From positions 58,714,001 to 58,778,000 of the forward strand of contig OZ024745.1 in the NCBI GenBank assembly GCA_964016885.1: DNA of 64,000 bases. The letters run 5' to 3'. A program made the translations under genes and the position numbers. Every line of letters starts with the position of its first letter. Position 1 is the first letter of the stretch. The stretch is from Eledone cirrhosa (taxonomy: Eukaryota). Of this stretch, positions 28,021 through 45,100 are shown piece by piece. The notes below the pieces were generated by a model. The model saw only the letters and a list, made by a program, of their open reading frames with translations, did not search any database and was not told the DNA's origin.

Positions 28021-28156
28021 GGAACGAGTAGGACCCCGACGGCTGACCTCAAGCCGTTTCGACGGCTAATTCTGTTCGGCTAATTTCGACGGCTAAGTAT
28101 TGAGTACTTTGGTGCGTTATGGTCCACCTGGTTCCTTACCACATTCCCTTCGTTAT
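28021..28156 (+). mobile_element. Family C insertion: inverted 5' piece plus tail
   Basis: GGAACGAGTAGGACCCC.. (inverted) joined via a stuttered TTTCGACGGCTAA to the tail ..ACCACATTCCCTTCGTTAT. Followed by a SINE 3' half (28157-28258). Confidence 0.8.
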
Positions 28157-28492
28157 CGCCGAGGTTGACTTTGCCTTTCATCCTTACGGGGTCGATAAAA
28201 TAAAGTACCAGTAATGCACTGGGTAATTGCTGGCCTTGTGCCTAAAGTAGAAACAGTTATATATATATATATATATATATATATATATATATATATATAT
28301 ATATATATATATATACATATATATATATATATATATTTATTTATATATATATATATATATATATATATATATATATACATATATATATATATATATATTT
28401 ATTTATATATATATATATATATTTATATATACATATATATTTATATATATTTATATATATATATTTATATATATATATATATATATATATAT

Positions 28493-39820: not shown

Positions 39821-42103
39821 ACGATATTAAATAAATGGAAACTATATTTATAAAACCATATTTATTTCATTATATATATTTCAGGGATATCATATTAAAA
39901 ATATGTTATGCCTTCTTCAGACAAAATACAATATAAACAGTCTTATAAATAGATAGATTCGACATACCTTTCAACTTCGACTTCTATTTGAAAAGTTGAT
40001 TTGGTAGTGAAAAAATATTAGGGACAGTTATAAAAAGAAAGAAAGAAAAACGAAGAAAAAGAAGAAATGCATGCAACTAAATAGAGAGAGATAGATATAG
40101 AGAGATAGATATAGAGAAGAAATTCATGTAAAGAAACAGAGAGAGATATATAGAGAGAGGAAAAAAACACAGAGGGAGATAGATAGAGAGAGAGAGAGAG
40201 AAGAGAGGAGAGATGTTGGTTCCACCTCGACAGAATTTAAACTTCGCTATAATAACCACAAGAATTCTTTCACAGATCCAAGCAAAAAATCCTCAACATC
40301 ACTATCAGGCCTACTCTGGCAACTTAGGCATGATAACGTTGGATATTCAACGGCTTGGAATATAGTCTCAAGAGGGATTCCTTTTAATTCATCCTCTGAG
40401 ACATGTGACCTCTTCGCGGAGGAGATATTCTTTATACTAAAATCTAAAAATTCCCTTAATTTACGGACAAATTTATTCAGTTGCTTAAGACATAGATTGA
40501 ACTCAACTTTTAAATATAAATATAAATTTAAAATGTAGTATATTTAATTTGATTTATAATTATTTATGAAACTCGCCGATAAATCTTTCGATTCCTTTTT
40601 ATTTTAAACATTCTTCATGAATAATTAAACTACCCTAAAAGCTCCAAATATATCGAATAAATTTTACACCAGATAAACTTCTATATTAAATATAAGACCA
40701 TCTGTAGATCAAATGGGTATCCTAAACTTTTGGAATGTTTTCTGCTAGACAGGATTTGGTAAATAATTTTTGGTTTTGTTTGCTTTTGATTCTGATGCTT
40801 ATAACGAACCTGGCAATATATTGTCAATTAACTTTGAAGGGTTGATCTCTGTGGTTGATTTGCGGGGCATACTATGTTTTATTTTAATTTTAATATTTTT
40901 AATATTTTTAATATTTTTATTTTTAATATTTTTTGGATTTTTTGTTTTTTATTTACTTTTTGTTTCTGATATTTTTATTGATATATTGATATCTGTTCTC
41001 TATTTGTGCTTGAACGATAATCATGTAGAGTAAAGACATGAATAGTATTGTTAAAATTAATGTAGACTCCATATATATTTGTGTGTATGTACACATATAT
41101 GTATACTTAAATTTTTATAGCACAATGAGAATGTTTTCGTGTGAAATAGGAATTTGCAGAGCTGATCACGTAAATTCACATGGATGTATATAGTATAAAA
41201 TCTGGGATAACCTTCTATTTTATCTCAACTCTAATATAAACCTTGGAATTTTAAACTAGACATATGATCATTATTTTTCACACATTATTGATACGTGTCT
41301 CATTCATGAATACTGATATTTACATTATAATGCCTGTTTTATACGAATTGATATTTTTTACATTGATGAAATATTTTTTACATTGATGAAACATAGTGTT
41401 TTAATTCTGCCCCGTTTTTATCTGGATATTTTTCTTTTCTCTCTATGTAACGGCTGTTTTCTCTCTTAACCACATATATCTCTCTCTACATTAATACTAG
41501 AGCTAAATAAATAAATAAATAAATAAATAAATATATCATTGATACGTCATTCAACTTGTGCCCAACTACCTAGTTTCTTTCTCTCTATCTCTATCTATAT
41601 CTATCCCTCTATATTTTCTCTCTCTCTCTCCTCTCTTCTCTCTCTCTCTCTCTATCTATCTCCCTCTGTGTTTTTTTCCTCTCTCTATATATCTCTCTCT
41701 GTTTCTTTACATGAATTTCTTCTCTATATCTATCTCTCTATATCTATCTATCTCTATTTAGTTGCATGCATTTCTTCTTTTTCTTCGTTTTTCTTTCTTT
41801 CTTTTTATAACTGTCCCTAATATGTTTTCACTACCAAATCAACTTTTCAAATAGAAGTCGAAGTTGAAAGGTATGTCGAATCTATCTATTTATAAGACTG
41901 TTTATATTGTATTTTGTCTGAAGAAGGCATAACATTTTTAATATGATATCCCTGAAATATATATAATGAAATAAATATGGTTTTATAAATATAGTTTCCA
42001 TTTATTTAATATCGTAAATATACTCCAAATACTTGTTGAGTGCTTTTATATCAGTTATAAATATTTACTCGTTGTTAACCCAACAATTTAAATAAAACTT
42101 TGC
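39821..42103 (+). mobile_element. Penelope-like element G (Nematis-like endonuclease), 5'-truncated, inverted pLTR plus tail
   Basis: 39821-40213 is the reverse complement of about 41622-42015; tail 42016-42103; (TA)n on both sides. Confidence 0.88.
40215..40538 (+). pseudogene. GIY-YIG endonuclease C-terminal half (absent from the ORF track, no start codon)
   Basis: Manual translation: VGSTSTEFKLRYNNHKNSFTDPSKKSSTSLSGLLWQLRHDNVGYSTAWNIVSRGIPFNSSSETCDLFAEEIFFILKSKNSLNLRTNLFSCLRHR..*. Confidence 0.85.
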
Positions 42104-45100
42104 ATATATATATATATATATATATATATATATATATATATATATATATATAATGTATATATATATATATGGTTAAGATAATGGGTACTCAATACTATTG
42201 TGTATGTATGGACCCATGATGGCGTCTTAGGGACGCCGTTATGACACATAGCGTGTCTTGAACATTTTAAATCTGGCGGAGCTCATTCTCTCTCCAAGTC
42301 TAAACAGCCGTTTTCTTTCAGAGGGGGCGGGGGAGAAAGGAGAAGACAAAAAAAAGATATAGATGAGAAATCAACTCCATAACTGACTGGTTCTAATTTA
42401 TGGACCTTGAAATGATGAAAGACAACGTTTACCTCAGCGAGTTTTGAACTCAGAGCGCCGATGGGATGAATGCCACCAAGGATTCTCTCCAACCTTCTAA
42501 CAACTCTGTCAATACAACGCCATAGTAAAGGCTAATGTATATTTGTTTTATTAAGGTCAAGTTTGTGTCTCGTTATTCTGGAGTTTCACCTGTCTGCTCA
42601 CAGGTATATCGCTCTGAATGAACGCTCAAAACCCGTGAGTAGAGTATAAATTTCATTCTCTAAGTAGAAACGTGGCAGTCAGATTGAAGTTTCAGTTGGT
42701 AACTTTATCTAGCAGTCAGGTGAAGCGATTAAGCTGAAACACCGAAGACGCTGTAACATTTCTACTTAGTTAATAAAATAAAATTGAATTAGAAACTTTC
42801 GATGTACTTTTGTCTACTGCAGAAGATGGTCTAATAATAACAGTGTATATATATATATATATATATATATATATATAAATATATAAATATATATATATAT
42901 ATATAAATATAAATATATATATATATAAATATATATATATATATATAAATATATATAAATATATATATATATATATATATATATTTATATATATATATAT
43001 ATATATATTTATATATATATATATATATATATATATATATATATATATATATATATATATATAACGAAGGAAATGTGGTAAGGAACCAGATGGACCATAA
43101 CGCACCAAAGTACTCAATACTTAGGGTAGTAGAGGGGTCCTACTCGTTCCTATATATATATATATATATATATATATATATATATATATATATATATATA
43201 TATATATTATATATATATATATATATATATATATATATATATTATATATATATATATATATATATATATATATATTATATATATATATATATATATATAT
43301 ATATATATATATATATATATACTGTTATTATTAGACCATCTTCTGCAGTAGACAAATATATATATATAGTTGAAAAATAAAATATATATATAGTTGAAAA
43401 TGAACGAACAAAACACAGGAGGCCATTGTATACAGTTATATAGGTTCACGCTTGATAGAAGTGGAGGAGGTTTCAACGTGTCGGACCGAAGGAAATTCGG
43501 ATAGGGAAAGAACAGAAACTCCGAGGAGGAGTAAGGAGAGAAGTTAAAAAGTTAAAAAAATAGAAAATGTAAAAATAGAAATTAAAAATAAAAATGGATA
43601 GGAGGGGGTCTATATGTCCAAGCTGGGGACAGAGGGGGTGGGGGAGATGGATTGATGGGTAACTAGCTAGCCAGCTAGCTAGATAGATATATAGATAGAT
43701 AGAGATATAGAGAGATAGATAGATAGTCAGGCATGCGAACATTTTCAGTCTACGGTATTCCACTCGCACGATCAACATAGAGCAGAAAACTCTATGTTTA
43801 ATCATGAATTAGTTAAATATAGACTGGTCTGCTGTGAATAGATTGCTTCACTGAACATTAGGATTGCTTCGCTTATAAGTATCTCTACGGAAGAGCAATG
43901 CAAATGTTGATCATGTGCGAAATATAATTATCACTAGTACTCAGAATATGCCGACATTTTTCAGTTTTCTGGCGGCCAGAAGTGTATTTTCTGTCTTTTT
44001 ATATTATTCTTTCTTCTCAAAAAAAGAAAATGAAATGTTCTTCCAATTAAATAGTTTCACTTTTTCCAGAGGGTCTATACCACGTTTCAATTGTTTTTTT
44101 TTCGTATTTTTTGTTGTTTTTTTTTCTATCATCATTTGCATTTTACGGGTCATAAAGAGGACTGGAAGAGGGAAATATAATTGGCATAACAAAGCGATAA
44201 TATAATAGCATTAAACGGCAACGTTTCCTTTCTTTCCTCACCTACTACGGTTAGCAGCAGCACCAACAGCAACTCAATACCCCCACTCCATCATCATCAT
44301 CATCATCATCATCATCATCATCATCATTACCAACTTCCTCTTCTCTTTCCTGATCATCATCATCATCACCATTTTGACAGCAACAAATTCCGTTTAAACT
44401 AATTATAGGTGGTTTTCCATTAACAAATATTAGTTTGGCGTACAACTGACTCTATTTGACAGTGATATTTGAGAGATTTGTGACAGATGAAAAATATAAT
44501 TTATCTAATGAATAACTATCTTTTTTCATTAGTATTATTGAGTAAAGAACAAGATTTGAGTATAAGAAAACGTTTAGGTAACAGTAAAGTATCGCTTTCA
44601 ATAGTATTGCTCGCTGTTTTGTGAAATTAAACCCGCTTGAGAAATGTATCCAAAGTGATATTCTCTATAAATGATATTAATAGTAAAGAGAACTACAGTA
44701 ATGCTATACCAACGAAACACATTAACTTCAACGACTGGAAATATTCGAGAGGATAATCTACCTGGGATAAGAATCAAGAAATCGTTTTCATTCTAACTTT
44801 TCACTTACTGTAAGCCAATTGTCATTAGATAGATTATTGCCGTCACTTTTCTGGTTTCCTAAACAAACCAGTACATTTCCATAGCTTCCAAATTAAGAAT
44901 TCTGGAGGTGAAATCTTTTCTGTCAAATTATATAACAACTAAATAATATAGGCTGCACAACCACACACAAACAAGCGTATTCTGACGAATCCTGAGTTAA
45001 TCCCAACGAGTAGTGCTCTAGCTGTTCATTATGGTCGAAGTGTTTGAGTATTCCACTAACACATATCTTAAACGAAATCCTCAGTCAAAATGTGTGTGTA

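Follow-up and report, generated by a model that had tools for sequence, protein, structure and literature searches.

Penelope-like elements (PLEs) in a 64,000-nt window of Eledone cirrhosa DNA end at two fixed positions, one on each side of the insert, and these two outer ends probably mark two protein-positioned reverse transcriptase (RT) start sites, each primed by one cut strand of the target. The window (the whole stretch of DNA that was analysed) is AT-rich and microsatellite-dense, and self-comparison together with reading of the sequence identified 23 inserts in it, ~16.5 kb in total and mostly flanked by (TA)n arrays (Table 1). All of them are most likely Penelope-like retrotransposons. 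The inserts are laid out as head-to-head fragments within (TA)n arrays, with random truncation at the centre, and their outer ends either carry a 3' tail (tail ends) or stop upstream of it (tail-less ends). All copies, counts and ends given below are those of the window. An earlier note on this DNA had proposed that the tail-less end is set by annealing of an internal TA motif to the nicked array. We kept its labels for families C, D and G; its family E is our D', and A, B, E, H, I, J, K and L are our own. Its G and E were equated with our G and D' through the motifs that it quoted.

Results

Tail-less ends are fixed within families

Comparison of the tail-less ends revealed a real breakpoint, fixed far beyond what uniform truncation would give. 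Three C ends (28021, 30745 and 43150) stop at the same base, CTCGTTCC/TATA (the slash marks the boundary with the array), where the tail-bearing arm goes on TATTACC, giving a 3-nt overlap with the array; the fourth, at 31163, lies 2 nt earlier and adjoins (GA)21 rather than (TA)n. The four C insertions are independent, because their flanks and central junctions differ, and their ends fall inside 2 nt of a 135-nt span (p ~3e-5 versus uniform truncation). The three D ends (16262, 31748 and 50048) are identical (TAACA/ATAT, 4-nt overlap; 128-nt span, p = 6e-5 versus uniform truncation), as are the G ends at 39822 and 57339 (AATATCG/TA), which overlap the array by 2 and 5 nt, respectively. The D' end at 50200 overlaps by 4 nt, but solely if one substitution is allowed, and that at 62889 reads TAAC/TATA where the element itself goes on AATATT, so that its overlap is zero. 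The short C arms were compared by pairwise alignment, because MAFFT placed them on an internal repeat of C.

These data bear out the earlier note in that truncation at the tail-less end is not random, that the three D copies share one end and that the G copies end at AATATCG/TA. Its description of four independent C ends at or within 1-2 nt of one boundary was also borne out, three ends being identical and 31163, beside (GA)21, being 2 nt short. The statement that each boundary is an internal TA or AT merging with the array was true of 9 of the 11 cited boundaries, the exceptions being C 31163 and D' 62889.

Tail ends are equally fixed, and most inserts have one end of each kind

The tail ends proved as fixed as the tail-less ends in C (4/4), D (3/3), G (2/2), E (2/2) and B (2/2), with a difference in the last base of the D tail end at 16304. 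The idea that one end is fixed was therefore correct for the tail-less end and incomplete as a description of the insert; the dispersed ends are the central 5' junctions, not the outer ends. One tail end and one tail-less end were present in 16 of 17 two-ended inserts (p = 1.4e-4 versus 50%, independent choice of ends giving at most 50% mixed pairs); L, the diverged C insert at 29302, K and D' 62889 were excluded from this count. The exception was family I (37284-39792), in which both outer ends lie at the same element position. The same 16 inserts display the PLE feature of an inverted 5'-truncated copy with a tail at one end, and the tail may be carried by the main copy (D') or by the inverted copy (A). 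Tails measured 47 nt in A and D', 58 in E, 60 in D, 80 in C, 89 in G, 105 in B, 129 in J and 136 in H.

Analysis of the central junctions revealed that the two arms have no element sequence in common in 4 of the 16 inserts (C28021, C31163, C43064 and D16262, with gaps of 19, 57, 4 and 44 nt, respectively), the two-arm reading of D16262 being less sure as a single diverged arm aligns too. Since the arms of these inserts share no sequence, neither was copied from the other and each was primed separately. C43064 is a near-contiguous inversion with a 5-nt overlap at its centre. In the remaining 12 of 16 inserts the arms overlap in element sequence, which fits two RNAs, strand displacement or fold-back.

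A precedent for two fixed ends exists in PAc, a Poseidon element of Anolis carolinensis (Frangieh et al. 2024, PMC11167929). As described in the accessible part of that study, both target strands are cut and extended in vitro, the cut is made at ATT, and RT starts at two internal sites in an AC-rich stem loop that form the boundaries of a 30-40 bp tail and have no homology to the target. Our inserts resemble PAc in their two fixed internal 3' ends bounding a tail, an upstream hammerhead, an AT-rich target and the use of both strands (PMC11167929); they differ in their (TA)n target, their 47-136 nt tails, the lack of a common fold, the CX4CX2C linker of D' and overlaps of 2-5 nt in some cases. 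The fixed breakpoint is a fresh case of this published tail and two-start-site property (PMC11167929), and the genomic signature of the inserts appears to match PAc-type internal initiation at the tail boundaries. The accessible text on PAc gives no per-insert pairing of the two sites (PMC11167929).

From the anole element (PMC11167929) and the anatomy of the inserts, we infer a mechanism in which the GIY-YIG endonuclease would cut both strands of the (TA)n array. One 3'-OH would prime at a distal site, creating the tail end, and the other at a proximal site 47-136 nt upstream, creating the tail-less end. The two cDNAs would end after varying distances and would be joined head-to-head, either by overlaps of 2-5 nt or across short fillers. 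The choice of start site is probably fixed by the position of the protein on the RNA; primer-RNA pairing of 0-5 nt at TA may shift the register by a base or two (C, D and G) and would not be required.

The 16/17 pairing, the four inserts that fold-back does not produce and the 47-136 nt tails also suggest a stricter form of this mechanism, in which twin priming is coupled and obligatory; we put it forward tentatively, as a possibility with the odds somewhat against it. An asymmetric dimer would commit one strand to the distal and the other to the proximal site. Both cDNAs would often be made on the same RNA, and the distal cDNA could stall at the proximal primer (in C43064 it stops 4 nt short). 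In some families that target (TA)n, drift would have brought the proximal site to a UA run of 3-5 nt by which the register is locked, and the tails would have grown to 47-136 nt.

An unlikely alternative is that self-primed cDNA folds back to make the inverted arm and that the GIY-YIG enzyme then cuts the element DNA at a TA-like internal site, which would make the boundary resemble the target. The arms of many inserts are near-symmetric palindromes with spacers of 3-72 nt, as fold-back predicts, self-priming has been proposed (PMC3846280), and so has endonuclease-mediated resolution of the tail (PMC8557442), at least in the parts of these papers that were accessible; resolution would also account for a mild TA bias. 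However, the four inserts whose arms have no common element sequence (D16262 less surely so) are not explained, the A, B and J boundaries are not TA-like, and the RT starts reported in vitro map to both tail boundaries (PMC11167929).

TA annealing is an unlikely cause of the inner site

In the annealing proposal of the earlier note, the tail-less end is defined by pairing of an internal UA run with the 3' end of the nicked (TA)n array. This proposal was assessed on a table of 22 junctions, from which I 37284, K 43322 and the G-like 33514 were excluded. Of the 19 tail-less junctions that remained, 11 overlap the array by 2-5 nt, one by 1 nt and seven by 0. The null for overlap was built, family by family, from positions and phases drawn at random in the 3' region of that family, and nine lineages served as units (D and D' merged, C 31163 left out of the score), because copies of one family are not independent. 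Total overlap was 15 nt versus 9.75 expected (p = 0.14), and five lineages had at least 2 nt versus 2.2 expected (p = 0.045). Scoring E as 0 gave p = 0.24 and 0.16 for total overlap and count, respectively; generous scoring (G = 5, J = 4) gave p = 0.010 and 0.008 (six lineages), and taking 13 distinct junctions as units gave p = 0.056 and 0.027. Lineages with zero overlap numbered three versus 4.1 expected. The three lineages cited by the earlier note showed an excess (9 versus 3.0 nt, p = 0.03), and the six that it did not cite showed none (6 versus 6.8 nt, p = 0.58).

At the level of single sites, the boundary is the longest alternating TA run between -30 and +40 in C, D, D' and the second G copy (G2), and the C and D overlaps exceed their own nulls (3 nt, P = 0.03; 4 nt, P = 0.04). 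Of 11 arms, seven (A, B, E, G1, H, J and L) have a longer run nearby that was not used; G1 shares its end base with G2, though it holds a better 5-nt run just 3 nt further on. The zero-overlap ends include that of family A, which bears an open reading frame (ORF), and one B junction met twice. Annealing is neither necessary nor sufficient, because overlap is not significantly above the null overall and longer runs go unused; the TA match is too patchy to be the likely cause of the inner site. Primer pairing over four bases helps L1 priming in the snap-velcro model, as far as the accessible text sets it out (PMC3649969), and a weak contribution of annealing may exist in some families. Yet the anole element starts at sites non-homologous to its target (PMC11167929), and as a general cause annealing appears improbable.

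Erosion or an assembly artefact, with slippage of long, unstable (TA)n arrays deleting the element back to the nearest internal TA, would suit the modified look of E 16346, which is 5 nt short, and of C 31163, which lies 2 nt short at a GA array, but it is very improbable. Erosion would halt at various TA runs rather than at fixed ends, some with 0 overlap, it would not be expected to leave just one of the two ends intact in 16 of 17 inserts, and it would leave unexplained the published occurrence of this tail signature in other animals.

Two further candidates for a signal at the start sites were rejected. A single cutting phase does not apply, as the arrays start with T at some junctions and with A at others. 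A repeated motif marking both sites occurred in C alone, out of register with the tail end (p = 0.005 from shuffles, in one of ten arms tested; ~0.05 after ten tests). This C motif of 20-22 nt (30551-30646) lies across the inner start site and again ends 13 nt before the tail end, and its duplication could make it a candidate protein-binding site.

PLE hallmarks among the inserts

As the earlier note had taken them to be, the inserts are most likely all of PLE type; D, E and G carry hammerhead motifs, and A, D' and I carry remnants of RT and GIY-YIG domains. A relaxed hammerhead descriptor (the initial one was too strict) identified nine motifs, seven strong ones in D, G and the G-like copy and two weaker ones in E; 50 shuffles gave a mean of 0.02 strong motifs and a maximum of 1. 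These are putative minimal type-I hammerheads, a kind described for PLE repeats in the accessible part of PMC4209133. The hammerheads point to the outer ends, so both outer ends are 3' ends of the element. No hammerhead was present among the 150 of 211 Rfam matches listed for the window, which were low-complexity sequences and palindromes, or in an Rfam scan of the D motif region. The descriptor detected no complete hammerhead in C, B, H, J or L, and the C arm, at most 136-139 nt long, has no CUGANGA core. Lone or degenerate half-cores were seen at 17091 (minus), 49193 (plus), 52009 (plus), 63128 (minus) and 46266/46279, in H, J, D' and a small palindrome, and a CAGAAGA variant in family B was read by eye near 6768 and 37067.

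Family A has an RVT_1 match (E = 1.9e-12) with DKG and GIY-YIG patterns, and its protein is 22% identical to a D'-like protein across RT and endonuclease (EN) (E = 1e-11). D' encodes the end of RT, a CX4CX2C linker (residue 116) and a two-cysteine GIY-YIG domain (residue 137); its protein matches one of Octopus vulgaris (56% identity, 65% of the query covered), and its relatives give weak RVT_1 and GIY-YIG matches under the cut-off. RT followed by GIY-YIG, the order of EN+ PLEs, is thus found in A and D'. The linker and EN pattern of Neptune and Nematis occurs in the D' protein, and family A has no CX2-5CxxC. Naiad and Chlamys, with an N-terminal endonuclease and no hammerhead, are matched neither by A and D', where the endonuclease follows RT, nor by D, E and G, which have hammerheads. 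D and D' share a 3' end (81%). RT-thumb and GIY-YIG remnants were read by eye in family I, whose protein showed no similarity to that of D' in pairwise comparison; its arms are 786 bp long, and near 38360-38420 two ORF fragments meet head-to-head. The GIY-YIG remnants of the window went unrecognised by Pfam (one query was a wrong-strand ORF at 63295), a PDB search with a relative returned 0 matches, and a search of prokaryotic genome contigs with the family C motif also returned 0. No ORF was found in B, C, D, E, G, H, J or L.

Other features of the window

Table 1. Positions and anatomy of the inserts in the window; overlap means overlap of the tail-less end with the array.
Family	Position	Strand	Arms and tail	Ends and internal features
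A	3221..6259	minus	Main copy; inverted arm 5909-6259 with 47-nt tail	DKG, RT, GIY-YIG (3930-5931); tail-less end 3221, zero TA overlap
B	6313..6932		Palindromic; 105-nt tail	Tail-less end 6313, zero overlap; identical junction at 52341
L	8033..8260		Short inverted insert	1-nt overlap; far end not array-bound, extent uncertain
Diverged C subfamily	15913..16040	plus	Single tailed arm	Between TA arrays
D (mini-insert)	16262..16306		Tail-less arm and probably last 15 nt of tail
E	16346..16954		Tail right	Tail-less end 5 nt short of 29214 site, zero overlap
H	16976..17484		Palindromic; 136-nt tail	Tail-less end 16976, 3-nt overlap
C	28021..28153		Tail-less arm 28021-28074 (minus), 18-nt filler, last 61 nt of 80-nt tail 28093-28153 (plus)	19-nt gap between arms in element coordinates; tail end adjoins TA and presumed SINE-like fragment
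E	28494..29214		Palindromic; 58-nt tail left	Tail-less end 29214, 2-nt overlap; hammerhead-like motifs 28831 (minus), 28935 (plus)
Diverged C subfamily	29302..29480		Arm and tail on minus
C	30551..30745		Arm and 80-nt tail 30551-30686 (minus), 3-nt spacer, tail-less arm 30690-30745 (plus)	56-bp palindrome
C	31163..31237		Tail-less arm 31163-31215, last 25 nt of tail	Tail-less end 2 nt short, beside (GA)21; central overlap 3 nt; 57-nt gap in element coordinates
D	31389..31748		Short arm and 60-nt tail 31389-31478 (minus); long tail-less arm 31477-31748 (plus)	Hammerhead core 31537
Diverged G-like	33406..33519	plus	Single arm	Hammerhead core 33422; end unlike G site
I	37284..39792			RT-thumb and GIY-YIG remnants; same element position at both outer ends
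G	39822..42103		89-nt tail to 42103	Tail-less end 39822, 2-nt overlap; hammerhead cores 39920 (minus), 41918 (plus)
C	43064..43150		Tail arm 43064-43138 (minus); 17-nt tail-less arm 43134-43150 (plus)	Tail arm stops 4 nt before inner site
J	49028..49423		Palindromic; 129-nt tail	Tail-less end 49028, 0 overlap (4 with one substitution)
D	49504..50048		Arm and tail 49504-49834 (minus); T-run filler; tail-less arm 49842-50048	Hammerhead core 49774
D'	50200..52292	plus	Inverted tail-less repeat 50200-50403; 3' repeat; 47-nt tail	5'-truncated ORF remnant ~50400-51750: RT core end, thumb, CX4CX2C linker, GIY-YIG
G	56925..57339		Tail left	Tail-less end 57339, 5-nt overlap; hammerhead cores 57112 (minus), 57241 (plus)
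D' (second copy)	62889..64000	minus		Tail-less end 62889, zero TA overlap; GIY-YIG remnant extends past window

Additional B copies at 37053-37137 and 52311-52341 end 8-9 nt inside the tail, one being a short tandem duplication, and are possible abortive starts. At 42809-43356, the TA array of 476 nt in which the C43064 insert lies is enclosed by 35-nt inverted flanks that face inward; the left flank forms part of a longer sequence, and there is a 2-nt difference between the two ends. A further small family lies beside TA or CA repeats at 30037-30144, 32225-32340, 52960-52996 and 43431-43486, with a degenerate hammerhead core at 30037. Unrelated families stand back to back at 15831-17526 and 27952-32191 with TA arrays alone between them, as if the arrays were reused as targets.

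An abundant repeat of ~190-235 bp, which we take to be SINE-like, is present in more than 20 fragments between 7764 and 59062 (e.g. 10435-10625, 19071-19844, 28156-28257 and 54253-55281), and a truncated copy begins 2 nt past the C tail end at 28153. LINE-like RT fragments, presumably of an RTE-like clade, occur on the minus strand at 26944-27639 (C-terminal part, Pfam match not significant) and 55880-56340 (N-terminal part). A 144-aa open stretch with an RPD motif (60190-60621, minus) resembles, on our assumption, the restriction-like endonuclease of R2-type elements, and a 302-aa open frame (277-1185, minus) is GC-rich (60%) with no Pfam match.

Discussion

The near-contiguous inversion in C43064 resembles L1 twin priming, in which, as Ostertag and Kazazian reportedly proposed in 2001, the second target strand primes internally and an inversion results. 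The second priming site of L1 is variable and picked by complementarity. Unlike that of L1, the second site here is fixed per family and often lacks complementarity.

The accessible part of the survey by Craig et al. (2021, PMC8557442) describes EN+ PLEs that target (TA)n and have inverted copies truncated at the 5' side, one end often bearing a tail of 30-40 bp, and gives EN-mediated resolution as the likely cause of the tail. Compared by motif, D' resembles the Neptune and Nematis C-terminal EN+ PLEs in its linker and two-cysteine GIY-YIG; the inserts differ from these in their longer tails and in the absence of the CX2-5CxxC pattern from family A (PMC8557442). The Penelope elements of Adineta vaga, whose palindromes Arkhipova et al. 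(2013, PMC3846280) attributed to self-priming with an antisense template, share head-to-head inverted pLTRs, an optional tail on one of them and palindromes at the inverted junction, in so far as the accessible text describes them. Unlike that account, the four inserts with non-overlapping arms need separate priming. A literature search whose reach did not extend to subscription papers found no paper on TA microhomology at PLE tail boundaries and none on twin priming in PLEs.

Several points weigh against two protein-positioned start sites. The mechanism is carried over from a Poseidon-clade element, and no RNA structure common to the boundaries was seen in 11 folds. TA pairing may matter more than we allow, given the longest-run boundaries in C, D, D' and G2 and the borderline lineage count, and fold-back could also yield the 12 of 16 inserts with overlapping arms. 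Both sides of family I carry one and the same end, and the loss of such same-end palindromes from genomes or assemblies may inflate the pairing. The second arm of the diverged C insert at 29302 stops in non-array DNA, 110 nt short of the tail end and away from the fixed site. The tails (47-136 nt) exceed the published 30-40 bp, a descriptive range and not a strict criterion. Finally, the assignment of C, B, H, J and L to PLEs, most likely as it is, follows from their architecture (in C, also from the target), as does their sense strand.

The window adds to the published property some ten (TA)n-targeting families in a single stretch, with junctions that can be used to test models of insertion. 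These junctions speak against TA annealing as a rule and against fold-back as the sole source of inverted arms, and they favour one-of-each use of two start sites. Should the coupling of the two sites prove true across the genome and in vitro, it would account for the arrangement of PLE insertions, head-to-head with a single tail, which the literature accessible to us calls mechanistically unresolved, and it would offer a guide for the use of PLE proteins in RNA-templated insertion.

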